64,000 nucleotides of DNA from Patescibacteria group bacterium (lineage in GTDB: Bacteria; Patescibacteriota; JAQUNI01): the NCBI GenBank assembly GCA_028717685.1, contig JAQUNI010000001.1, forward strand, positions 548,062 through 612,061, in the 5' to 3' direction. The notes under the pieces are model-generated. The model had not been told where the DNA came from and did no database searches. It was given only the letters and a program-made list of their open reading frames with translations. How positions within the stretch are numbered: the first letter of the stretch is position 1; every line of letters begins with the position of its first letter. Of this stretch, positions 507-62,649 are shown one piece after another. The translations under genes and the position numbers were made by a program.

Positions 507-520
507 AGATGTAATAAGTT

Positions 521-650
521 AAAAATGAAAAATGTAAAATGTAAAATCATAATTCAAAATTAAAAATTTTGCATTTTACATTGTCTCGCTTTGCGAGATC
601 TCGCGAAGCGATGATAATTTTTCATTTTTTACTTTAAATTTTGAATTATG
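521..650. repeat. Composite palindromic intergenic repeat element, copy 1
   Basis: 7-nt-periodic arm (aaaatgtaaaatgtaaaatcataattcaaaattaaaaatttt), core near-palindrome TGTCTCGCTTTGCGAGATCTCGCGAAGCGATG, and an inverted arm copy (ataatttttcatttttt). A closely related copy lies at 50161-50250. Confidence 0.55.
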
Positions 651-4321: not shown

Positions 4322-4476
4322 AAAATCAACTTTATTTTAAAACTAAAACTATGAAGCGTTTTTTCGAGCTGCGGTTTAAAATTCTACGCTTTGCGTTTTT
4401 GTTATTTACCCCGTTATAGAACTTCGTTTTCTAACTATACTATACTATAACGAAAAGATGCTTTTTTTTCAAATTT

Positions 4477-7778: not shown

Positions 7779-7864
7779 TTTATTTTGCCTCCTATTTCTT
7801 AATTATTAAAATTATTTACCCTCACGCTAAAGATTTTGGTGGTGAGGCTTTACCTCGTTAGACT

Positions 7865-7890
7865 CCGTTAGAAATAAATTTCTAACGGGG
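7865..7890. promoter_or_regulatory. GC-clamped palindrome ccgTTAGAAATAAATTTCTAAcgggg, a TTAGAA-N6-TTCTAA element
   Basis: Perfect 8+2+8 inverted repeat at 7868-7885. It abuts the stop of the PrsW-like gene and lies about 90 nt upstream of the hsp20 ATG. Confidence 0.4.
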
Positions 7891-11738: not shown

Positions 11739-11974
11739 ATAGCAAGTGCAAAATTTAAAAATCCAAATTTAAAATTTAGGTAAATATACAAAGTGACTTT
11801 AGCATAGAGATTGAAATTTTTCAATAATTAAGATAGCGTGTAGATAAGTAATTTTTAATTTTGATTTTTTGATTTTTAGCTAATTTTTATTGAATTATTG
11901 TATTATTGTCTTGCTTATGATGGCAATAAAAATTAAGCAAATAAAAATTAGTTAAAAATTAAGAATTAAAAATT

Positions 11975-12985
11975 ATGTTGATCTTGGGTATTGAGACTTC
12001 TTGCGATGAAACAGCCGCGGCGGTGTTTCAAGATGGATGCAGAATTTTGTCTAACGTTGTTTCCTCACAAATTAAACTCCATACGCCTTATGGCGGGGTG
12101 GTGCCGGAAATCGCCTCTCGCGCTCATATGGAAAATATCATTCCAGTAATTCAAAAGGCTTTAGAAGAGGCTAAAGTAGAGGGAAAAGATTTGGATGCGA
12201 TCGCCGTCACCACGGGGCCAGGTTTGATTACTTCTTTAATGATCGGCGTGGATACTGCTAAAACCTTGGCTTATGCATGGGAAAAACCAATACTGGGCGT
12301 AAACCATATTGAGGGGCATATCTATTCAGTAAAGCTCAAAGCTCAAAGTTCAAAGCTCAAAAGTATAAAACTTCCGGCGATGTGCCTTACGGTTTCGGGA
12401 GGACATACAATGCTAGTTTTAATTAAAGAGTGGGGAAATTATGAGGTGATTGGCGAAACCATTGATGACTCTTGCGGGGAGGCCTTTGATAAAGTGGCTA
12501 AATTATTGGGCTTGGGTTATCCGGGCGGACCGATTATTGAAAAGCTGGCGCGAGGCGGCGGGAGACAGGCCTTTTCTTTTCCGCGGCCAATTTTAAATCA
12601 GGGTAATTTTAACTTCAGTTTTTCAGGCTTAAAAACCGCCGTGCTTTACCAAGCGCGTCGAATTAAGAAAATGGACAAAAAAGTTGTTCAAGATATTTGC
12701 GCCTCTTTTCAGGAGGCTGCCTTTGAAGTTTTAGTGATTAAAACTTTGCGGGCGGCGCGAAAATTTAAGGTCTCCACGATAATATTGGCAGGCGGCGTGG
12801 CCGCGAATCAAGCTCTTCAAAATTTTTTCAAAAAATCCTTGTCAGTTAATGATTACAAGTTACTTATTACTGATTTCCCTACTGATAACGCCGCTATGAT
12901 TGCAGGGGCGGCTTATCCGCGGGTATTAAAAGAAGACTATGATGACTGGCATAGTCTTCAGGCAGATCCTAACCTTAAACTCTAG
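11975..12985 (+). CDS. tsaD: tRNA N6-adenosine threonylcarbamoyltransferase TsaD (Kae1/YgjD family)
   Basis: Starts MLILGIETSCDETAAAV and contains the HIEGH metal-binding motif. Carries an in-frame low-complexity insertion VKLKAQSSKLKSIKL encoded by 7-nt tandem repeats at 12331-12370. Confidence 0.95.
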   Translation: MLILGIETSCDETAAAVFQDGCRILSNVVSSQIKLHTPYGGVVPEIASRAHMENIIPVIQKALEEAKVEGKDLDAIAVTTGPGLITSLMIGVDTAKTLAYAWEKPILGVNHIEGHIYSVKLKAQSSKLKSIKLPAMCLTVSGGHTMLVLIKEWGNYEVIGETIDDSCGEAFDKVAKLLGLGYPGGPIIEKLARGGGRQAFSFPRPILNQGNFNFSFSGLKTAVLYQARRIKKMDKKVVQDICASFQEAAFEVLVIKTLRAARKFKVSTIILAGGVAANQALQNFFKKSLSVNDYKLLITDFPTDNAAMIAGAAYPRVLKEDYDDWHSLQADPNLKL

Positions 12986-14742: not shown

Positions 14743-14863
14743 AATGTAGAAAGGTAAAATGTAAAGCGAAAAGTTTAAAGCAAAAATTCAAAATGCAAAA
14801 TATAAATATAGAAACACTAATTTATTTTACGCTTTTATTATACTCTTTTTATGGAAAACAAAA

Positions 14864-16102: not shown

Positions 16103-16269
16103 TTTAATTTATCGCATCTTATTAAAGGTGTCAAATAGGGTAAAATAAATTAAAATGCAAAATGTAAAATTATAATTAGAATTTTGTCATCTTCTTAATT
16201 TTTAGGTAAGATAAACAATGAAGCTTCGCGCTACATAGAGGCACAGAGAAGTAATTAAATAATAAAACA

Positions 16270-18429: not shown

Positions 18430-18557
18430 CAAATTTTAGCTAAAATGGTATGATAGGAATTAGAATTACGAAGTAGGAATCACGAATTATGAATTAAGAG
18501 CATCCAGAAGTTAGTTAAAGTTTATTGAAATTAAGAGTTTTATTGTTAAGTGAATTT

Positions 18558-21350: not shown

Positions 21351-21365
21351 TTTTGATTTAGTATT

Positions 21366-22586: not shown

Positions 22587-22789
22587 AAATATTAGATTCA
22601 ATGAATTTATTATTGGTTTCAATATAGCATAGGCAAGTGAAATGATCAAATTTTTGCTTATGAATAATTTTTAATTTTTATTTCTTAATTTTTATTAAAT
22701 TTTCAATGTTTTAATTTTTAAACATAATTTTACGGCAATATTTCCATATGGCTTTCATTGTTTAAAAATGGAATTTGATTGGAAAGGAA

Positions 22790-24757: not shown

Positions 24758-24834
24758 AAAAAGGTTATTTTTGTAAAATTTAGAGTTGTATTATTTATTG
24801 TAGCATAGATAGAAAAAGAAAGGAGTGATAATTG

Positions 24835-25065
24835 ATGCAGTTATGGAGAAATAAAGCAGACAATTCTTTGGCTGTGAGTAAGGACGTTTCAACTGGCTCG
24901 GGTGATCTAATTGTCATCGGTGAAGATGGAGAAGATGGTACCGTGGATATAGAAGATTGGGAACCGATTCCCTTAGAAGAATTTATGAAGGAGATAGGTA
25001 AATTAAGGAAGGGATTTGAGGCTGCAAAGAATGTGCCTTCAACGCAATTTTCGTTTCGACTCTGA
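24835..25065 (+). CDS. Hypothetical small acidic protein, 76 aa
   Basis: RBS AAAGGAG 9 nt upstream of the ATG; no recognisable domain. Confidence 0.3.
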   Translation: MQLWRNKADNSLAVSKDVSTGSGDLIVIGEDGEDGTVDIEDWEPIPLEEFMKEIGKLRKGFEAAKNVPSTQFSFRL

Positions 25066-25114
25066 AAAGAATTCTTTTTGATTTGGCATTTTTGTTTTTT
25101 AGGAGGAATAAGCT

Positions 25115-25276
25115 GTGGAAAGGGAACTTAAGTCTGGTGACTTGCTGAAGGATCCCGAGACAGGAGCATTATACATATTCCTAGGTGTTTTTATAGAAGA
25201 AGGGGGAAAGACAGTCCTTAAAATAAAATCACTGATGGTTGGTACTCTTGGAGTATGGGAAAATATAATTTTGTAA
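25115..25276 (+). CDS. Hypothetical small protein, 53 aa, GTG start; not in the ORF track
   Basis: Perfect RBS AGGAGG 8 nt before the GTG; 54 codons counted by hand. Reads VERELKSGDLLKDPETGALYIFLGVF… The opposite-strand track ORF 25099-25284 has no RBS. Confidence 0.25.
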   Translation: MERELKSGDLLKDPETGALYIFLGVFIEEGGKTVLKIKSLMVGTLGVWENIIL

Positions 25277-25426
25277 AAGTGCATGATAAAGAAAATGCCG
25301 CAATATCTTTATTAAAAGACATTAATGAAGAGAAAGCCTGCGCGGCAGGGTATCGCGACCAAACTATAAAGAAGTTTTCTGATGAGTAGCTGGTTCTTTA
25401 ATCAGATATTTGGAAGGGGACAAGTT

Positions 25427-25465
25427 AACTGAACTTTATAAGAAGGAGTTCAGTTTTTTATTTGC
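25427..25465 (+). terminator. Rho-independent terminator closing the small-ORF unit before ruvA
   Basis: Stem aactgaact / agttcagtt, loop ttataagaagg, then TTTTTTATTT. Confidence 0.55.
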
Positions 25466-25538
25466 TTTTGCTTCTTCTTTAGGCTAAAATAAAGATAATT
25501 CCTTTGATTCGTGATTCTTAATTCCTGATTCAACTTTT

Positions 25539-26105: not shown

Positions 26106-27143
26106 ATGAGAATTGTTGAAATAAATCAAAAAGAAGAGTTGAACAATTTTATTGTTCAGTATGGAGGCAGTAATTTTTTGCAATCTTGGGAATGGGGAGA
26201 GTTGCAAAAGAATTTAGGTAGAGACATCTGGCGCGTGGGGATAGAAGAAGCGGGAAAATTAGTTTTTTCCGCTTTGATTATCAAAAATAGACTGCCTTTG
26301 GGCAGGAGTTATTTGTATTGCCCGAGGGGACCGGTTTTTGAAAATTCAAAATTTAAAATTCAAAATTTAAAATTAGTTGGTTGGAAGCTGTTGTCAGAGA
26401 AGATAAGAGAAGTAGCTCAAAAAGAAAGAGCAGTTTTTTTCCGTTTTGATTATCCTGATTTACACTTGCCAGAGTTTCTGAAAGGCAAGGTTGTTCAATC
26501 TCCCAAGGATATTCAACCCAGAAGCACTTTAATTTGGGATATTACAGGGTCAGAAGAAGAAATTTTAGCCCAGATGAAGCCTAAAACGCGCTATAATATT
26601 CGTCTAGCGCAAAGAAAGGGGGTACGCGTCAGGCAAGGCGTAGAACAGACAGATTTAAATATTTTTTTAAGCTTAATTAAAGAAACCTCGCAAAGAGATG
26701 GATTTAAGATTCATCCGGAGTTTTATTATCAAAAAATGGTGGATTTTTTGGGTAAAGAAGGGATTTTAAAGATTTTTTTGGCTGAATTACAAGAAAAGGT
26801 TTTAGCCGCAAATTTAGTTTTGTTCTGGGGCGAGCGAGCGACCTACTTGCACGGCGCCTCGGGTAATGCGAATCGCAATGTGATGGCGCCGCACCTTTTG
26901 CAATGGGAACAGATTAGAGAGGCAAAACGGTTTGGTTGCAGGGAATATGATTTTTGGGGAATCATGTCGGAATTAGGAATCAGGAATCAGGAATTAGGAA
27001 TAAAGACCAATGATGAGCAGAGTTCTTGGGTAGGTATTACCAGATTTAAGAAGGGTTTTGGGGGCAGGGAAGTCAATTATGCCGGCACTTATGATTTCGC
27101 GCTTAATCATTCTTGGTATAAAATATATCGCCTATTTAAATGA
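26106..27143 (+). CDS. FemAB-family peptidoglycan interpeptide-bridge peptidyltransferase
   Basis: 345 aa with the FemX-like motif KPKTRYNIRLAQRKGV. Two in-frame low-complexity insertions are encoded by 7-nt tandem repeats at 26340-26376 and 26969-27004. Confidence 0.65.
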   Translation: MRIVEINQKEELNNFIVQYGGSNFLQSWEWGELQKNLGRDIWRVGIEEAGKLVFSALIIKNRLPLGRSYLYCPRGPVFENSKFKIQNLKLVGWKLLSEKIREVAQKERAVFFRFDYPDLHLPEFLKGKVVQSPKDIQPRSTLIWDITGSEEEILAQMKPKTRYNIRLAQRKGVRVRQGVEQTDLNIFLSLIKETSQRDGFKIHPEFYYQKMVDFLGKEGILKIFLAELQEKVLAANLVLFWGERATYLHGASGNANRNVMAPHLLQWEQIREAKRFGCREYDFWGIMSELGIRNQELGIKTNDEQSSWVGITRFKKGFGGREVNYAGTYDFALNHSWYKIYRLFK

Positions 27144-28480: not shown

Positions 28481-28527
28481 ATGTCGACCCTACTAGAAAG
28501 AAATTTCTAGACGGGGTTTAACGGGGT

Positions 28528-28959: not shown

Positions 28960-29117
28960 AAATTTGTGCCTCCGCTATTATTATACTATATAAAGAAGAT
29001 AAATTTCAAATTCAAAGCACTAAATCCTAAATAAATTACAATAGCCAAAATTCAAAATTAAAAACATAGATGAAAAGTTGAATTTTTGAGAATTGGAATT
29101 TTGAATTTATTTAGGAT

Positions 29118-29534
29118 TTGGGATTTGGTGCTTGGGATTTATATATTATGTTTCTATTTATCAATACTGCCCTAAATAATAAACTCACGATTGCCCTTGT
29201 GTCGTATACTCTCGGGATTTTGGATAGAACTGATTCAGATATTTACCAAAATCATTCGGAAAAGCTGTTGCCTGCGGTGGAAAAGTTGTTGTCCCAAAAT
29301 AAATTAATCTTGAAAGATTTAAAGGGTATTGGCGTGGTGCGCGGACCGGGCTCTTTTACGGGCGTGCGCGTTGGCGTCGCCTGCACTAATGCCTTGGGCT
29401 TTGCTTTAAACATCCCAGTAAAAGGAATAAGATATCAAGAAGGCAAAGATTTAGTGAAGCAAATTTTCCAGAGATTTCCTGGGGGTGGATTTGACAAACC
29501 TGTCGTTCCCTTTTATCAATATAAACCGGTATAG
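29118..29534 (+). CDS. tsaB: Short TsaB-like protein, N-terminal domain only
   Basis: Contains the TsaB hallmark GPGSFTGVRVGVA and LLPAVEKLL, but is 128-138 aa against about 230 for typical TsaB, so the C-terminal half is absent. The real start may be the ATG at 29148. Confidence 0.5.
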   Translation: MGFGAWDLYIMFLFINTALNNKLTIALVSYTLGILDRTDSDIYQNHSEKLLPAVEKLLSQNKLILKDLKGIGVVRGPGSFTGVRVGVACTNALGFALNIPVKGIRYQEGKDLVKQIFQRFPGGGFDKPVVPFYQYKPV

Positions 29535-40457: not shown

Positions 40458-40550
40458 TACGCGAATCAGGAATCAGGAAGTTAAAAAAATCGGGCAAAAG
40501 CCCGATTTTGTAATTGAAATAAGAAGAATCGTTTTTTTTATTTAATCTCC

Positions 40551-45275: not shown

Positions 45276-45475
45276 GTTGTGGATAACTTTTGAATCCATT
45301 GTTCGATTGTTCCATTGCTCAACTGTTACAGGTTCATTTTATTTTCCAAAAGATAAGGTCAACAATCGAACAATAGAACAATTGAGCAATCAAAATTCAA
45401 GACAGGATTAAATCCAATAAAAAAATAACCTTTAAGCGATGTTAGGTTATTTTTTATTTTCGTTATTAAAAAATT

Positions 45476-46252: not shown

Positions 46253-46342
46253 AAATGAGTTAGTAACTAGTAATCAGTAATCCGTAATTGGTAAAATATT
46301 AAAAATTGTCACTGATTACTAGTACAATTTATCAGTTATTTT

Positions 46343-50160: not shown

Positions 50161-50250
50161 ATGAAAAATTGTCTCGCTATGCGAGATCTGGCGGAGCCAG
50201 AAAAATGAAAAATGCAAAATTGCAATGCAAAATTAAAAATTGAATAAGAG
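50161..50250. repeat. Composite palindromic intergenic repeat element, copy 2 (reverse orientation relative to copy 1)
   Basis: AATGAAAAATTGTCTCGCTATGCGAGATCTGGCGGAGCCAGAAAAATGAAAAATGCAAAATTGCAATGCAAAATTAAAAATTGAATAAG. The core differs from copy 1 at about 4 positions. Confidence 0.55.
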
Positions 50251-51116: not shown

Positions 51117-51148
51117 GAGATTTTAGATTTTCAATTTTAGATTTTAGA

Positions 51149-52213: not shown

Positions 52214-54001
52214 CTATGCTCCAATAATCACAGGTAAAATCATTGGCCGGCGCTCTGTGCGCTTAAACAGATATTCACCGATTTCTTCCCTGATTCGCGA
52301 TTTAATGTAAGCCTCATTCACGCTTAATTCTTTTTTACCTTTTGTATCTACAATCTTTTTGATTTGATTTTTGACTTCTTTCAGTAGTTTATCAGATTCT
52401 TTCATATAAATAAAGCCGCGAGAGACAATATCTGGTTCGCCAATTAAAGCGCCGTTATCCTTGTTGACAGTGATAATCACCACGAACATTCCATCTTTGG
52501 CCATTTGCTGACGGTCGCGCAAGACTACATGGCCAACATCGCCGATACCGAGGCCATCAACTAGGACATAGCCAGAGGGTACTTTATCTTTTAAGATAAG
52601 CCCTTTCTGTTCTTGGTCAATATTCAGGATTTGACCGTTCTCCATAATAAAAATATTTCCGCTCGGTATGCCCAGTTCCCGGGCAATCCAAGCATTATTC
52701 ACGAGCATATGATGTTCTCCGTGGATCGGGACAAAATATTTTGGTTTCAGGAGGGAGAGCATTAGTTTCATATCCTCTTTATGGGCGTGTCCTCCAGTAT
52801 GAATATCCATAATTTTTTCATAAAATACGCGCGCGCCTAGGCGGAAGAGGTTATCCATCATATTATAGATGGAGCGTTCATTTCCTGGGATGGGAGATGA
52901 GGAGAGAATAATGGTATCCCCTTTATGAATTTTAACTTCTCTATGTTCTTGGCGGCTCATTCGGGCGAGGGCGGATGACTCTTGACCTTGACTTCCCGTA
53001 GCCACAATTACCACTTTATTATCGGGTAAGTTTTTGGCTTGTTTCAGGCTAATGACTGTATCAGGAGGAATTTTTAAGTAGTTAAGGCGCACAGTAATTT
53101 CCACTGCTTTTTCCAGCGACATTCCCGAGAAGGCGAGTTTACGGCCGGTTTGATAAGCAGAGTTTACAGCCTGCTGGATTCGGCTGATCAAAGTAGAAAA
53201 AGTGGCCATAATAATGCGTCCTTTAGCGGTTTCAAAGATGCGGTGCAATGTTCTACCAATCTTTTTTTCAGAGATAGAGTGGCCTTCTTTTTCGGCGCTT
53301 GTGGAGTCGCACATCGCGACAAGGACACCTCTGCCTCCGAGGAGTGCGATGCGCGAGAAGTCGCTCGGTTTTTCGTCAACAGGCGTGTAGTCAAATTTAA
53401 AATCACCAGTCGTCACGCACAGCCCGACGGGGGTGTAGATGGCGATGCCCACACCATCCGGAATATTATGATTGACGCGAAAGAATTCTAATTCAAAATT
53501 GCCGATCCGGATATTGTCATTGACCGTGAAGGTATTGAGACGCGCTCTTTTGTCCATTCCAAATTCTGCCAAGCGATCACGGATGAGTTCAATGGTGAGG
53601 GGCGTACCATAAAGGTAGGGGTTGCCTAGTTTTTCCAAAAGATAAGGGATTGCCCCAATATGATCTAGATGACCATGCGTAAAAATTATGCCGCGAATTT
53701 TATGCTTATTTTTAACAAGGTAAGAGATATCCGGGATCACATAGTCAATGCCGAGCATTTCTTCGTTGGGAAACATTAGCCCCATATCAATCACGATAAT
53801 ATCATTTCCATATTCAAAAACCGTCATATTTTTACCCACCTCTTCCAAGCCGCCTAAAGGAACGATTTTTAGGTTTGAGTCGCGAGGCTCGGAAAGAGGG
53901 GGAGACGGGATAGACTTGATAGCGGGTGGAAGTGTGGGTAGGGGTTTGGTAGTAAACTTTGGTTTTTTGTGATGAAGCATGATATAAAGGTCAAAAGTCA
54001 A
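52214..54001 (-). CDS. rnj: Ribonuclease J (beta-CASP metallo-beta-lactamase RNase)
   Basis: HxHxDH motif FTHGHLDHIG with beta-CASP motifs. The N-terminal 45 aa are Pro-rich; the functional start may be the ATG at 53980. Confidence 0.9.
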   Translation of the reverse strand: MTFDLYIMLHHKKPKFTTKPLPTLPPAIKSIPSPPLSEPRDSNLKIVPLGGLEEVGKNMTVFEYGNDIIVIDMGLMFPNEEMLGIDYVIPDISYLVKNKHKIRGIIFTHGHLDHIGAIPYLLEKLGNPYLYGTPLTIELIRDRLAEFGMDKRARLNTFTVNDNIRIGNFELEFFRVNHNIPDGVGIAIYTPVGLCVTTGDFKFDYTPVDEKPSDFSRIALLGGRGVLVAMCDSTSAEKEGHSISEKKIGRTLHRIFETAKGRIIMATFSTLISRIQQAVNSAYQTGRKLAFSGMSLEKAVEITVRLNYLKIPPDTVISLKQAKNLPDNKVVIVATGSQGQESSALARMSRQEHREVKIHKGDTIILSSSPIPGNERSIYNMMDNLFRLGARVFYEKIMDIHTGGHAHKEDMKLMLSLLKPKYFVPIHGEHHMLVNNAWIARELGIPSGNIFIMENGQILNIDQEQKGLILKDKVPSGYVLVDGLGIGDVGHVVLRDRQQMAKDGMFVVIITVNKDNGALIGEPDIVSRGFIYMKESDKLLKEVKNQIKKIVDTKGKKELSVNEAYIKSRIREEIGEYLFKRTERRPMILPVIIGA

Positions 54002-54086
54002 ATCTCAAAAGTTAAAAGTATCATTCTGAATTTTTTATTGTAGTTAAGATTTGAGTTTTGATTTTTGAGTTTTGAGTTTATGTTAG

Positions 54087-56202: not shown

Positions 56203-56206
56203 ATTG

Positions 56207-56422
56207 TTAAATTAATACGTTCACTAACGCTATCGCGCCAAAGGCAATAGCTAAAAATATAGTCGCGCGAAAGACAATTTTTTCCACGCCTCTTTTAGTG
56301 CGGTAAAATCCTCCTTCGCCGCCAAAAGCACTGCCTAAACCTGTGCCGCGGGCTTGGACTAAAATCGCCGCCGTGAGCAATATTGCGAGGATAATCTGGA
56401 CAATTTTTAATATTTGTGACAT
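56207..56422 (-). CDS. secG: Preprotein translocase subunit SecG
   Basis: 71 aa with two TM helices and a Gly-rich loop (GTGLGSAFGGEGG). Confidence 0.8.
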   Translation of the reverse strand: MSQILKIVQIILAILLTAAILVQARGTGLGSAFGGEGGFYRTKRGVEKIVFRATIFLAIAFGAIALVNVLI

Positions 56423-56727
56423 ATTAAAACAAGGTCTTGCTTAAAACAAAAGGTGATTATAGAATACCATTTTAGAGTGGAGGAGTCAATAAGAAGGGAA
56501 GCAGGAATAGGGAATAGGGAATTATAAATAATAAATAATTCTTTTATCTCTTTATTTCTAATTCATTTTATTGTTCTTTTTATCCAGTGTTCTTTTAATC
56601 ACAAAGACACTCTTGCCGGAGATTTTCATTTTCGGCAAGATTTTTCTGTTTCGGTTTTTGATTTTTTGCTGGGCTCTTTTAATTGGGTGGGTCATAGGTA
56701 TTTGATATTTAGAAGGAGGTATTTTTT

Positions 56728-56961
56728 ATGGGTGGAGCAGGAAGAGTTGATTGTGGTCTGTCTAATAAGGGAGATTCTTATCCGAATTCTCCAATGAACT
56801 ATTCAGATCCGGTAGAATTTATAGCCACACCATCAAGATTACAAGAGAGGGTTGATGCCTTAGAAGCACAAGTTGCAGAACTTACCGAGTTAGTTAAGAA
56901 GCTCCAAAAAGGAGAAAAAGACGAGGAGGCTGACTTATTTGCTCGGACAGAGTTAAGTTGA
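56728..56961 (+). CDS. Hypothetical small protein, 77 aa, with a C-terminal coiled-coil
   Basis: Strong RBS GAAGGAGG; hairpin terminator gctgat/atcagc plus T-run at 57023-57046. Confidence 0.4.
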   Translation: MGGAGRVDCGLSNKGDSYPNSPMNYSDPVEFIATPSRLQERVDALEAQVAELTELVKKLQKGEKDEEADLFARTELS

Positions 56962-57082
56962 AAGGAGGATTTTCGCGATATTGCGGCAGATTTAGTTATC
57001 TAGAGCCCTTATAACGATTAAGGCTGATGAGAAAATCAGCTTTTTGCCAACATTCAGTTGGCTTTTTTTATTTTTTCCCTTT

Positions 57083-57212
57083 GTTGGCTCCATAGTGGCG
57101 TTAGCCCTATGGAGCCATAATGCAAGCCGTGAAGAGAAAATATGATCAGACTTTATGTGCATTGCGGCTCCATAAGCTCCTCGCTTCGCTCGGGGACTAT
57201 GGAGCCAACAGA
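57083..57212. repeat. Cluster of GGCTCCATAG / CTATGGAGCC(AAC) motifs forming two hairpins; a further copy at 59548-59565
   Basis: gttGGCTCCATAG (57083-57095) pairs with CTATGGAGCC (57106-57115). GGCTCCATA (57167) pairs with TATGGAGCCaac (57197-57212). The same 18-mer GGGGACTATGGAGCCAAC recurs upstream of uvrA. Confidence 0.5.
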
Positions 57213-57309
57213 GTCATTAAAGAGCAAGGCAGACAAAGAGACGATGATATCTTCCAAATTATACTTTAACTTTTCAAGACTTAGGTCTGCTCTTCTAATC
57301 TCTGGACTT

Positions 57310-59465: not shown

Positions 59466-59659
59466 TTAGATTCTCGCAGTTTTTTTTATTGGAAGGGAAT
59501 GGAGTCGCACGGATATTTTCATCTTGCAATATGACTCCACAGCCCCTTTGGGGACTATGGAGCCAACACCCTATTATCAAGTTTTGACCCAAGGGCTTTT
59601 TTGGTATATAATTATAAAGTTTAAAAATTTTTAAGTAAGATAATTCAAAACAAAAAATA

Positions 59660-62500
59660 ATGCCGAAGAAAATTATTATCCGCGGGGCGCGGGTGCATAA
59701 TCTAAAAAATATCAATCTAGAGATTCCACGAGATAAATTAGTGGTTTTTACTGGTTTGTCCGGCTCGGGAAAGTCCTCGCTTGCCTTTGATACGATTTAT
59801 GCCGAAGGTCAGCGCCGTTATGTGGAGAGTCTATCCGCTTACGCGCGGCAGTTTTTAGGTTTAATGGATAAGCCGGATGTGGATCAAATCGAAGGATTAT
59901 CACCAGCGATTTCCATTGATCAGAAATCCGCTTCCTCTAATCCGCGGTCTACAGTGGGCACGATTACTGAAATTTACGATTACTTACGTTTGCTATTCAG
60001 CCGCGTCGGCAAACCTCATTGCCTTTCCTGTGGCAAGCCGATTACCGCCCAGACAGCGAGCCAGATTACAGACAAGATTCTTGCCCTTCCTCGCGATTCT
60101 CGGGTAATTATTTTAGCCCCCTTGGTGCGCGATCGCAAAGGCGAACATAAACGGGAAATGGCAGAGATTCAAAGAGCAGGGTTTGTGCGGGTGCGTTTAG
60201 ATGGAGTGATATTAGAATTGGAAGAGGCGCTTCAGGGCAATATTAATCCTAAAAAGAAACACACTTTAGAGATTGTGGTGGATCGGCTAGAGATCAGTGG
60301 AAACAAAGAAAACAGAGAGCGGGTTGCCGATTCCATAGAGACAGCATTAAATTTAGGCAATAGTTTAATTATTGTGCATAATCTGAACACCAGTGAGGAC
60401 TTGATGTTTTCAGAAAATTTTGCCTGCCCGGAATGCGGCTTAAGTCTGCCTAGCTTAGAACCGCGCGATTTTTCTTTTAATTCGCCGCACGGCGCCTGCC
60501 CGGAATGTACTGGTCTTGGCACTAAGTTAGAGGTTGACCCTCTCTTAGTGATTCCGAATAAAAGGCTTTCTATTTATGAGGGCGCGATTCGGCCCTGGGC
60601 AAGGAGCGCTTCGCGCAATGGTTGGTATATTCAGATGTTGGAAGCAGTGGCTTCTTATTACGGTTTTTCCTTGAGCACCCCTGTGGCAGGGCTTAAAAAA
60701 AAGGATCTGGAGATTATCCTTTATGGGACTGCCGATACCCGCATTCCTACCGCGTTTAAAAGAGATTATCGTTATTTGCAAGCCGAAATTCCTTTTGAAG
60801 GGGTGATCCCTAATTTGGCTCGGAGATATCAGGAGACAGAATCTGATTATGTGCGCCGTGAGATTGAAAAATATATGCGCATTTATCCTTGCCCCACTTG
60901 CAATGGTATGCGTCTCAAAAAAGAAATTTTAGGGGTAAAGATTATGGGGCGTTCCATTGTGGATATTGCGCAAAAGGACATTGCTGAAGCCATAACTTTC
61001 TTCCAAAATTTAGAAAAGGATTTAAACGCTCGGGATAAAATTATCGCTAAGCAGATTTTAAAAGAGATCCGCGCCCGTCTTTCTTTTTTGCAAAATGTGG
61101 GTCTTTCTTATTTAACTTTGGATCGGCCGGCAGCCTCCTTGGCGGGCGGCGAATCCCAAAGAATCAGGCTCGCAACCCAGATCGGTTCTGCTTTAGTCGG
61201 CGTGCTTTATATTCTGGATGAACCCTCTATTGGTTTGCATCAAAAAGACAATGTGCGCTTAATTGAAACCTTAAAAAAATTGAGAGATCAGGGTAACACG
61301 GTAATTGTAGTGGAACATGATGAAGAAATGATTTTAAACGCCGACTTTATCGTGGATATCGGACCAGGGGCGGGGAGAGAAGGCGGGGCAATCGTCGCTT
61401 GTGGAACACCGGCAGAGATTAAAAGGAACAAACGTTCTCTTACGGGTCAATATTTAAGCCGTCATCTGGAGATTCCCTTGCCTCAAAAATATCGTCCTGG
61501 AAGCCACAAAAAAATCACCATTTATGGCGCTTCGGCGCATAATTTAAAAGAGATTACCGCGGAGATTCCTTTGGGCAAGCTAGTTTGCGTTACCGGCGTT
61601 TCGGGTTCGGGTAAATCCACTTTAATCTGCGATATCTTGGCGCGGTCCTTGGCTCAATATTTTTATCGCGCCCGCACCCTACCGGCTAAACATAAGAAGA
61701 TCACGGGTTTTTCATATCTGGACAAAGTGATCAGTATTGATCAATCACCGATTGGCCGCACTCCGCGTTCCAACCCGGCGACTTATACTGGCGCATTCAC
61801 CCACATCCGTGATCTTTATGCGGCAACTCAGGAGGCCAAAATTCGAGGTTATCGCGCGGGTCGTTTTAGTTTTAATGTGAAAGGAGGTCGGTGCGAGGCC
61901 TGCCGGGGTGAGGGTTTAGTCAGGATTGAAATGCAGTTTCTGCCGGATGTGTATGTGGAATGCGAAGAATGTAATGGCACCCGTTACAACAAAGAAGCCC
62001 TGGAGATTTATTACAAAGATAAAAATATCGCTGATGTTTTAAAAATGACCGTGGCAGAAGCTTTGCAGTTTTTCCGCAATGTGCCAGCGATATATCAAAA
62101 ATTAATAGTTTTATGCGATGTGGGTTTGGATTATATTCAGTTAGGTCAACCTGCACCTACTCTTTCTGGCGGCGAAGCGCAAAGAGTGAAACTCGCTAGC
62201 GAACTCGCGCGGCGCGCTACAGGGAAGACCCTGTATATTTTAGATGAACCGACCACGGGTTTGCATTTTCACGATGTGGGAAGGCTGTTGGCGGTTTTAA
62301 ACCAACTGGTGGATAAAGGCAATACGGTTTTGGTGATTGAGCATAACTTAGATGTCATCAAATCCGCGGATTGGATTATTGATTTGGGACCGGATGGCGG
62401 GGAGGCGGGCGGCTATCTTGTAGCGGCAGGCACGCCGCGCCAAGTCGCCAAAGTGAAAGCAAGTTATACGGGACAGTTCTTGAAGAAATACTTTCAATAA
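59660..62500 (+). CDS. uvrA: Excinuclease ABC subunit A
   Basis: 946 aa with duplicated ABC ATPase modules (two Walker [19 protein letters not shown], signature LSGGE) and zinc-finger CxxC pairs. Confidence 0.97.
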
Positions 62501-62649
62501 TTTTTAATTTTTAATTCTGAATTTTAAATCAAATCCAAATTTTAAATTCTTAATTTTAAAACTTTTTTTTCTTCGTTTTAAACTTTAAAATTCAAGCATT
62601 TAAAATTGATTTAAAATTAAAAATTTATAATTTAAAATTTTATTTAAGG

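Follow-up and report, generated by a model that had tools for sequence, protein, structure and literature searches.

The 64-kb stretch of contig JAQUNI010000001.1 analyzed here (termed the window, and the only stretch of its source genome examined for repeats) carries short tandem arrays of heptanucleotides, which lie mostly between genes and are also found in frame within genes for conserved enzymes, namely TsaD and a FemAB-type transferase. The excess of period 7, the positions of the arrays, their persistence at orthologous sites with changing units, their clustering at four units, the replacement, without any gap, of a native LeuRS hairpin in other Patescibacteria, and the presence of local seeds were each observed directly. 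We consider it probable that the arrays are heptanucleotide microsatellites (of the long simple sequence repeat class, akin to the short tandemly repeated repetitive, or STRR, sequences of cyanobacteria) that arose by replication slippage on local seeds and were subsequently shaped by selection; slippage as the enzymatic cause, and the -21/+21 nt cycle that it would entail, are what we infer from these data.

Tandem Repeats Finder returned 59 rows for the window, 27 of them with period 7, and this period was retained by 19 of the 43 arrays that were left after removal of overlaps. A lag-match scan revealed 6 to 8 strict period-7 segments as compared with 0 to 0.03 in shuffles that kept dinucleotide or local composition; other periods from 4 to 16 gave 0 or 1 strict segment each, with the exception of period 14 (the double unit), which gave 4. 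Strict arrays of periods 4 to 12 numbered 0, 0, 1, 8, 1, 0, 0, 0, and 0 in the window (about 0 in shuffles) and 0, 0, 0, 10, 0, 1, 0, 0, and 0 in six close relatives. The double unit GGAATYAGGAATYA, when up to two mismatches were allowed, occurred 16 times in the window (3.4 expected). The units (AAAATTC, AAAATGY, GGAATYA, AAAGCTC, TAATTTT, and similar) are A/T-rich and belong to at least five families in the window, and identical unit families were seen between genes and in frame within the FemAB and TsaD genes. Every array listed in the initial annotation was recovered at or within a few bases of its reported position, but the accompanying description of most spacers as built of repeats was overstated: 16 of the 38 spacers of at least 40 nt held an array, and arrays covered 786 of the 9,570 non-coding bases (8%) versus 155 of the 54,430 coding bases (0.3%), for a density 29-fold greater in non-coding DNA. 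Two assemblies derived from two other sequencing runs (L001 and L002) were 100% identical to the window over 7.9 and 4.5 kb, including the FemAB region, and the arrays therefore are not an assembly artefact. The window has only three coding arrays, two in the FemAB gene and one in tsaD; alignment of polA, holA, uvrB, ruvA, and the Mur ligase, rpoB, secretion ATPase, and DHH genes with those of relatives revealed no further internal heptamer indels.

The repeat period was reproducible beyond the window. Sequences surrounding FemAB genes at 67 other Patescibacteria loci (1.06 Mb in total) held 1, 0, 1, 59, 11, 3, 0, 1, and 6 strict arrays of periods 4 to 12, so that period 7 was again dominant, and thirteen loci from outside the candidate phyla radiation (CPR; 0.18 Mb, of higher GC) held 3 period-7 arrays. 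A corresponding signal was detected in proteins. When periodicity was scored as at least three consecutive residues identical at lag 7, 40 of 120 FemAB homologues were positive (7.5 expected from shuffles and 6-12 found at other lags), as were 33 of 120 TsaD homologues (10 expected). These signals clustered at the same few loops within each protein, and the two families had several peptides in common (NFQFPISNFQ, NFQFSIFNFQ, NSKFKIQNSK, and KLKAQSSKLK). Among 763 other open reading frames (ORFs) of the Patescibacteria loci the lag-7 excess was modest (117 segments versus 50-97 at other lags), which indicates that FemAB and TsaD are hotspots rather than typical proteins, and ORFs of the non-CPR loci exhibited no lag-7 excess. 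Coiled-coil heptads were considered as the source of the seven-residue periodicity and were rejected on the grounds that the repetition is exact in the DNA itself and that each array encodes only 10-11 residues.

The FemAB gene contains two arrays, both on the + strand. Site 1 (26338..26376) comprises five units of AAAATTC/AAAATTT, equivalent to 2.4 copies of the perfect 14-mer AAAATTCAAAATTT, and encodes the peptide ENSKFKIQNLKL (residues ~79-90) in the loop that follows the conserved CPRGP motif. Site 2 (26967..27004) comprises 4.7-5 units of GGAATYA and encodes ELGIRNQELGIK (residues ~288-300). As initially annotated, these arrays and that of tsaD are in frame and encode the quoted peptides. 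Alignment of 22 homologues indicated that both FemAB sites are length-variable loops between invariant motifs, with CPRGP preceding site 1 and YDFWGI and GITRFKKGFGG surrounding site 2. The AlphaFold model of the protein, with a mean predicted local distance difference test (pLDDT) score of 88.6, had its lowest scores at the arrays (63 for residues 81-90; 67 and 51 for residues 291-310). Its fold matched FemX structures 6snr and 1ne9, and site 1 is 7 residues and site 2 is 12 residues longer than in FemX of S. aureus. Only a few bases separate the start of the site 2 array from the preceding conserved codons for Trp-Gly-Ile (TGG GGA ATC A), which themselves contain the GGAATCA unit. The site 1 unit is AAAATTY in the window, AATTTTC in relatives L083 and L085, and AATYTTN in L087; at site 2, the GGAATYA array of the window corresponds to AGAATCA x4 in L085 and to a decayed array in L083, and the array is absent from L088 and from L087, a relative in which it has been lost. 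Identity between the window and either L083 or L087 is 86-90% at the four-fold degenerate sites of the FemAB gene, whereas the site 1 array matches those of relatives at 24 of 42 positions directly and at 31 of 42 as the reverse complement.

GC-rich palindromes (CCCGCCCGC...GCGGGCGGG, some with GCGAAGCGATGG) were observed in one relative, nested in heptamer arrays intergenically and in the FemAB gene, where a palindrome of 75 nt (L085:8075-8149) is translated in frame. At the same site, L088 contains an insert of ~40 nt homologous to the L085 FemAB palindrome and tandemly duplicated. Further palindrome sites were noted at L090:8990-9040 and at L085:441, the latter having the same sequence as L090:10696. 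A BLAST search of all collected loci revealed no other copies of the GC-rich inserts of L085 and L088; a later motif search gave two related palindromes in the same relative.

The tsaD array (12330..12362, + strand) consists of 4.4 copies of AAAGCTC rather than the five initially annotated, encodes VKLKAQSSKLK in frame, and lies between the HxxGH metal-binding motif and VSGGHT in a loop that is 5 residues longer than that of Thermotoga TsaD. At this loop the window contains AAGCTCA x4, L089 (89% amino acid identity) contains GGAATCA x4, L090 (80%) contains AAGCTYA x4, and L091 (70%) contains a perfect AAATTCA x4 array. The array units of the window and L089 match at 3 of 7 positions, compared with 74% identity at the four-fold degenerate sites of the same genes. 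Coding arrays of both FemAB and TsaD thus turn over faster than four-fold degenerate sites, and orthologous arrays retain their location and length but differ in the unit throughout all copies. The inserts are not lineage-specific, contrary to what was expected from the window alone, in that heptamer arrays, in many cases of a different unit, occupy the corresponding loops of orthologues with identities as low as ~40-50%. Every orthologue of FemAB, TsaD, and LeuRS that we inspected has its array in frame.

Arrays were also found in LeuRS genes among the metagenome matches. In these genes the array is located between GxSEG and VFTTRPDT, and its peptide KLKFPISNFQFPIE aligns gaplessly to EILFPVEGKEVRIP of Thermus and EITFNVNDYDNTLT of E. 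coli, so the arrays in other Patescibacteria replace the native hairpin without a gap. The modal loop is 15 residues long (38 of 92 Patescibacteria-like homologues) with or without an array, as illustrated by the native loops AYLEFPISGHDEKIK and AKLTFPIAGREESIE and the array-bearing loops ARLKFPISNFQFPIE, ALFQFPISNFQFPID, TLIKFQIPNSKFQID, and AEIKFSIFNFQFSID. At least 11 of the 92 loops exhibit seven-residue periodicity; the loop of one homologue measures 9 residues, which may represent a contracted state, and none of the 92 has a loop of 22-23 residues. The native Phe-Pro-Ile codons of LeuRS, TTTCCAATT, contain the AATTTCC unit. Together with the GGAATCA unit in the Trp-Gly-Ile codons of FemAB, this finding indicates that units are drawn from adjacent native sequence. 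The LeuRS arrays are still perfect in L100, L105, and L137, even though their flanks have diverged. The initial annotation proposed that the repeats may supply length-variable loops; the coding copies do indeed occupy variable loops of low model confidence, but the net gain in length is small (TsaD) or zero (LeuRS). Two further features of LeuRS were noted: many Patescibacteria-like enzymes (L100, L120, L137, homologues P0241 and P0253, and others) have a NUDIX domain (PF00293) inserted after the editing domain, and that of L120 contains at least three separate heptamer-derived peptides.

The sizes of the arrays are sharply distributed. In 1.2 Mb of Patescibacteria sequence, perfect lag-7 runs were bimodal, with many at 9-13 matches, few at 14-22, and a second peak at 23-25 matches; 8 runs had exactly 24 matches (31 nt, i.e., four units plus 3 nt), and none was longer. 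We also scanned metagenomes for (AATTTCC)3AAT and obtained at least 120 stretches; the figures that follow are from 80 loci (81 arrays) among the matches listed. Array spans peaked at 30-33 nt (52 of 81), and the 78 arrays with measurable flanks contained four complete units in 53 cases, three in 24, ten in 1, and five to nine in none. ORFs of at least 120 codons held 68 of the 81 arrays (43 sense and 25 antisense, in all three frames), and spans of at least 35 nt were found for 2 of these 68 versus 3 of the 13 arrays outside such ORFs. The array started exactly at AATTTCC in 52 of 81 cases, and ends were AA, AAT, AATT, or AATTT. Among 47 perfect arrays of other units, 22 spanned 24-28 nt, 23 spanned 30-34 nt, and two were long outliers; 19 of the 47 started with AA on the A-rich strand. 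For nearly perfect arrays the ratio of four-unit to three-unit forms was 23:11 in coding and 14:19 in intergenic DNA. Inspection of the unit showed that AATTTCC has no stop codon in any of six frames, and A-runs within coding arrays were preceded by C or G. Separately, one metagenome contig (L135, Ga0137414_1224466) contains perfect (ATGACGA)n arrays of 73 and 84 nt, as compared with the limit of ~31 nt elsewhere.

According to the slippage mechanism that we favor, the growing strand would realign 7 nt back at a pair of short A/T-rich microhomologies (A-runs in most cases) and recopy the local heptamer. Slippage at such sites would place both ends of an array in an A-run and give it a span of 7k+3 nt. 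Cycles of contraction followed by renewed expansion would homogenize each array while its unit drifts, resulting in concerted evolution. Between genes, any copy number and any orientation could survive, and some arrays may have been recruited as hairpin-forming elements that are now conserved. Within genes, survival would be restricted to units without a stop codon in any frame, a filter that could account both for the C or G preceding A-runs in coding arrays and for the presence of AATTTCC in both orientations. Only net changes of 21 nt would keep the frame, so that one seed plus three units, i.e., four units, would be typical. Arrays would be retained only in loops that tolerate the peptide or need their length restored, as in LeuRS, and the resulting peptides of 10-11 residues, with a periodicity of seven residues, would occupy loops of FemAB, TsaD, LeuRS, and further proteins throughout the phylum.

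Several results weigh against this mechanism or exceed what it explains. The left boundary of the AATTTCC arrays is fixed far beyond the prediction for random seeds, and the exact 30-nt sequence (AATTTCC)4AA recurs at least 21 times among the matches listed. Nearly perfect arrays are limited to ~4-5 units even between genes, where selection on frame cannot be the explanation. Intermediates of +7 and +14 nt frameshift essential genes, and either a +21 nt change in one event or a short-loop state is required, of which a single candidate (the 9-residue LeuRS loop) was seen. The preference for 7 nt is itself left unaccounted for by slippage. Array length did not vary between the window and L001 or L002; moreover, L083 and L084 differed by 10 substitutions and 0 indels in 17.6 kb, and L085 and L086 exhibited no indels, although near-identical pairs of this kind sample a timescale that is possibly too short for copy-number change. 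FemAB site 1 of the window looks inverted relative to those of relatives, an outcome that simple slippage does not yield; in-place inversion is a possibility suggested by the alignment, but this unit is almost its own reverse complement. At FemAB site 1, the modes of loop length (21-22, 26-27, and 32-33 residues) fit steps of 10-11 residues at least as well as steps of 7, and a loop-length census of TsaD and FemAB did not cleanly separate the two step sizes. The suggestion of an active expansion process requires qualification: gains, losses, and unit turnover were evident between species, but near-identical strains exhibited no copy-number variation, and it is from the interspecies comparisons solely that ongoing expansion would be deduced.

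The alternative that retains the most ground holds that the intergenic arrays are functional cis-elements and that the coding copies are by-products of a shared sequence preference; taken as a general explanation we regard it as unlikely. The candidate roles would be those of DNA or RNA hairpins, leaders lacking a Shine-Dalgarno motif, RNase or terminator sites, or binding sites for S1-, Csp-, or CsrA-type proteins. In several spacers an array is succeeded by an inverted copy of itself, and the predicted folding of these spacers is much stronger than that of shuffles (z from -3.4 to -6.7). Upstream of tsaD, an inverted pair of A/T-only arrays (TAATTTT... and ...AAAAATTA; 11845..11978, + strand; z = -6.65) forms an extended hairpin encompassing the start codon of tsaD. 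The pair is 73% identical to that of L090 over 240 nt and 100% identical over the last ~38 nt (the 3' arm), as compared with 44% identity at the four-fold degenerate sites of tsaD in the same two genomes. Similarly, the TAATTTT x8 array (22665..22721, + strand) upstream of the minus-strand S20 gene is ~98-100% identical in L083 and L087 and partly kept in L088. Some A/T-only arrays are thus conserved far above neutral sites, and these are probably functional elements, as judged from sequence comparison; this strongly conserved, hairpin-forming subset of the intergenic arrays does not have the character of expansion debris.

Position also lends some support to a cis-acting function, since about half of the intergenic arrays are located within 50 nt upstream of a start codon, in parallel with the TAACTGA repeats of Beggiatoaceae (PMC4679880). 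Seven genes are immediately preceded by an array, and a Shine-Dalgarno-like motif is lacking in all of them; however, 34 of the 43 genes in the window lack one anyway, and the association is not significant. Arrays also occur at the 3' ends of genes and in both orientations, and other spacers are replaced wholesale or are without an array in relatives. For example, the degenerate AAAATGY/AAAGNNN array at 14750..14815 (+ strand), upstream of a minus-strand gene for a type II secretion ATPase-like protein, is absent in L090 and L091; the divergent spacer that contains an AAAATGY array at 16140..16195 (+ strand) holds arrays of other units in relatives; and the spacer with CAAAATT, TTGAATT, and ATTTGGG arrays upstream of a tsaB-like gene (29046..29140, + strand) is wholly different in L083. 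A scan for sigma-70-type promoters and terminators around the conserved arrays performed no better than on shuffles, and the sole match at the gathering threshold in an Rfam scan of the window was to one tRNA, so no Rfam family corresponds to the arrays. A cis-acting function also leaves the clustering at four units and the turnover of coding arrays unexplained.

We find rather improbable a dedicated process that would install blocks of four heptamers (~30-33 nt) or overwrite existing sequence with them, such as a tiny mobile element, templated repair, or a conversion system. In its favor are identical (AATTTCC)4AA(T) sequences at more than 80 sites among the matches listed, in many ORFs, both orientations, and three frames, with a fixed start phase and a sharp four-unit limit. 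It is also consistent with the arrays that remain perfect in LeuRS orthologues with diverged flanks, the gapless replacement of the LeuRS hairpin, the FemAB site 1 loop modes that favor steps of 10-11 over 7 residues, the possible inversion of the window site 1 array in place, and the GC-rich palindromes nested inside arrays of one relative. When the arrays were examined for a mobile-element consensus, however, the units were diverse (the fixed start phase of (AATTTCC)4AA notwithstanding), often matched adjacent native codons, and were flanked by frayed partial units only, with neither target-site duplications nor conserved flanks. Single coding arrays are direct repeats rather than palindromes, and only intergenic pairs form hairpins. 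No candidate enzyme was linked to the arrays. The differences in size between coding and non-coding arrays run in the direction that selection predicts, A-run boundaries are general across units as expected of microhomology, and the recurrence of AATTTCC is partly due to our having searched for this unit, which is stop-free in six frames. A more specific proposal, that Patescibacteria possess an active process beyond slippage that directionally writes and continually re-homogenizes four-unit blocks of ~30 nt over loops of TsaD, LeuRS, and FemAB with length unchanged, strikes us as equally improbable; if true, the whole phylum would have a mutational system for "loop-rewriting", or else a hitherto unrecognized type of tiny mobile or conversion element.

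Phase variation is very unlikely to explain the coding arrays. As in known phase-variable genes (PMC4679880), gain or loss of one 7-nt unit shifts the frame and could switch FemAB or TsaD on or off as at a contingency locus, but near-clonal assemblies exhibit no copy-number difference, the window arrays are imperfect, all inspected orthologues are in frame, and the affected genes encode housekeeping enzymes (TsaD, LeuRS, and a transferase of the cell wall) rather than being surface, virulence, or restriction-modification genes. Chance low complexity in AT-rich intergenic DNA (many of the Tandem Repeats Finder rows are low-scoring) is refuted by the shuffle controls, which gave ~0 arrays, with only period 7 and weakly period 8 being enriched, and this explanation or an assembly artefact has a negligible probability when independent assemblies are identical and the same loops carry arrays in dozens of other genomes.

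In form, the arrays belong with the heptanucleotide simple sequence repeats of prokaryotes, and they are not strict STRR sequences, contingency loci, or elements of the Rickettsia palindromic element (RPE) type. RPEs, reportedly recognized by Ogata and colleagues in 2000 as selfish DNA in frame within protein-coding genes, are palindromic dispersed elements of 100-150 bp with one consensus. They resemble the arrays in that repeated DNA is tolerated in frame at surface-exposed positions of housekeeping genes in a reduced genome, but the arrays are ~30 nt long, tandem, non-palindromic, composed of many units, and in many cases seeded by codons nearby; a likeness to elements of the RPE or REP (repetitive extragenic palindromic) type is limited to the GC-rich palindromes that one relative has within its arrays. 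The consensus units of cyanobacterial STRR sequences are CCCCAGT (STRR1), TTGGTCA (STRR2), and CAACAGT (STRR3). The resemblance to these sequences that was initially noted holds for form, in that both are real, heptamer-dominated classes with abundant and mostly intergenic arrays and several families per genome, as in Calothrix, Nostoc, and Anabaena; it does not extend to the host, which is not a cyanobacterium, or to the units, which are A/T-rich and differ from STRR1-3, and the arrays here are much shorter, typically of 3-5 units. A report on heptamer repeats in Calothrix is cited in PMC4692102.

According to summaries of the survey by Mrazek et al. (2007) in PMC4679880 and PMC4692102, the long simple sequence repeats of most prokaryotic genomes are predominantly heptanucleotides, for which Mrazek, Guo, and Shah proposed an origin in slippage by a polymerase whose footprint is ~7 nt; units with a length divisible by three have the greatest likelihood of being located in coding regions, as summarized in PMC4679880. 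To the extent described in those summaries, the repeats surveyed are like the present ones in that 7 nt is the dominant long class, mostly intergenic and scattered over the bacterial tree, and unlike them in that arrays of the window type are common within conserved genes, cluster at four units, persist at orthologous sites, and change units in concert. The present arrays share with that class a tandem 7-nt excess over composition and a prevalence of period 7 over neighboring lengths in the lineage, and differ from it by the constancy of copy number between the near-identical assemblies compared. The TAACTGA repeats of marine Beggiatoaceae, cyanobacteria, and Bacteroidetes (MacGregor 2015, PMC4679880) form arrays of 2-6 copies, the majority of which immediately precede start codons that have no Shine-Dalgarno motif, and occasional copies within ORFs are translated as seven-residue repeats at protein termini. 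Several arrays of the window similarly lie 0-15 nt upstream of starts lacking such a motif, but the TAACTGA system has one dominant unit with stop codons in its forward orientation, in contrast to the many families, the location in internal loops of essential enzymes, and the unit turnover seen here, and TAACTGA itself is not among the window units. The GGGAATC and GGGGAYT repeats of Xanthomonas and Nostoc (Rehm et al. 2015, PMC4692102) are intergenic, sometimes form inverted pairs, and keep their positions between related species; they vary extensively in length and sequence, are G-rich and quadruplex-capable, and reach tens of copies. GGGAATC is very similar to GGAATCA and GGGAATA of the present arrays, which differ in being A/T-rich, short, and coding as well as intergenic.

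Our literature search yielded no paper linking heptamer repeats to Patescibacteria or CPR, and a search on loss of mismatch repair in CPR yielded nothing usable. The occurrence throughout Patescibacteria, the frequent presence of arrays within conserved enzymes, their clustering at four units, the persistence at orthologous sites with concerted change of the unit, and the gapless replacement of a native hairpin are undescribed in the papers found. If slippage followed by selection is correct, a large bacterial radiation has a distinctive mutational signature that reshapes surface loops of highly conserved enzymes, and it offers a natural experiment on why bacteria favor 7-nt slippage, in which selection on frame and length gives discrete, countable sizes. 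For annotation and structure prediction, the segments of 10-11 residues would be DNA-level artefacts that align poorly rather than conserved protein features; for phylogenetics, concerted evolution inside arrays can mislead alignments; and with regard to CPR gene expression, some conserved inverted arrays composed of A/T only may be unrecognized regulatory hairpins.

The remaining intergenic arrays, on the + strand unless noted, are as follows. AAAATGN/AAAATTN arrays at 509..570 lie directly upstream of a minus-strand gene that starts near 507 and, together with 615-655, form the outer stem of a hairpin (z = -5.65). A 39-nt GC-rich double hairpin (GTCTCGCTTTGCGAGATCTCGCGAAGCGATG; ATTGTCTCGCTWTGCGAGATCT...) at 580..618 has a second copy at 50168-50206, beside a GAAAAAT/AAAATGC array (50200..50242), and both copies are embedded between AAAATGN heptamer arrays. 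An AAAATTT-type array (11750..11778) adjoins tRNA-Glu. A GGAATTA/GAATTAC/GGAATCA array (18457..18496) lies 28 nt upstream of polA, and a GGAATYA-type array (25505..25531, - strand, reading TGATTCC on the + strand) lies 7 nt upstream of ruvA. GAATCAG x2.4 (40461..40482) lies just after the ftsK stop codon, and AGATTTT x4.4 (51118..51148) abuts the stop codon of a gene for a class I (Trp/Tyr-type) tRNA synthetase. The two octamer arrays (TCCATTGT-like and AACAATCG-like) between convergent genes at 45295..45391 are real and mutually inverted (45295-45327 and 45361-45391; z = -4.57), as initially described, and an AGTAATC-type array (46263..46297) has an inverted partner nearby (z = -3.79). The region 53986..54079 contains AAAAGTC x4.9 at the annotated RNase J start and TTTGAGT x4.3 adjoining tRNA-Leu, whereas 56504..56539 contains GGAATAG x2.7 followed by AATAATA x2.9. 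Finally, an inverted pair of TAATTTT-type and TTTAAAA-type arrays with 63-nt arms (62498..62643; z = -3.39) fills the spacer between uvrA and the next gene.

The window is a dense housekeeping region (GC ~41%) that includes polA, uvrA, uvrB, uvrC, ruvA, rpoB, ftsK, tsaD, the genes for CTP synthase, RNase J, the FemAB-type transferase, and a Mur ligase, and a single unsplit rpoC (1,280 residues). Its FemAB and TsaD proteins are identical to NCBI entries named Patescibacteria, and its best protein matches were named Patescibacteria or Candidatus Doudnabacteria, the latter being the closest named relative, and the organism is a Patescibacteria (CPR) bacterium; a cyanobacterial origin was ruled out by the unsplit rpoC, the CPR-like gene set, and these matches. 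A Shine-Dalgarno-like motif was located within 20 nt of the start codon in ~9 of the 43 genes, and A/T-rich leaders predominate, a pattern suggesting that this organism relies little on Shine-Dalgarno pairing to initiate translation. Two long "spacers" (24758-25538 and 56203-57309) harbor small ORFs that are preceded by good Shine-Dalgarno sites and start, for example, near 24836 and 56727, and relatives have small genes of 76, 53, and 81-82 residues called at the first location; these spacers are thus not truly non-coding. Close relatives carry near this locus a diversity-generating retroelement cassette, consisting of a bAvd accessory gene and a split RVT_1 reverse transcriptase (L083:3732-5142 and L085:16014-17422). 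In L083 the cassette sits between the polA-adjacent gene and holA, and the syntenic position of the window (21351-21365) is 15 nt only, without the cassette. Near gene ends, a dispersed palindromic hairpin, CCCCGTTAGAAATAAATTTCTAACGGGG, is located at 1834-1861 and 7863-7890, with similar sequences near 28495-28527 and ~4400-4440 (3 matches versus 0 expected), and it is possibly a shared terminator or a REP-like element. The 19-mer GGGGACTATGGAGCCAACA, for which 0 occurrences are expected by chance, is found at 57082-57100 (-), 57192-57210 (+), and 59550-59568 (+), flanking uvrC on either side and accompanied by inverted partial copies, and is a candidate for the boundary of an element or for a site of recombination.

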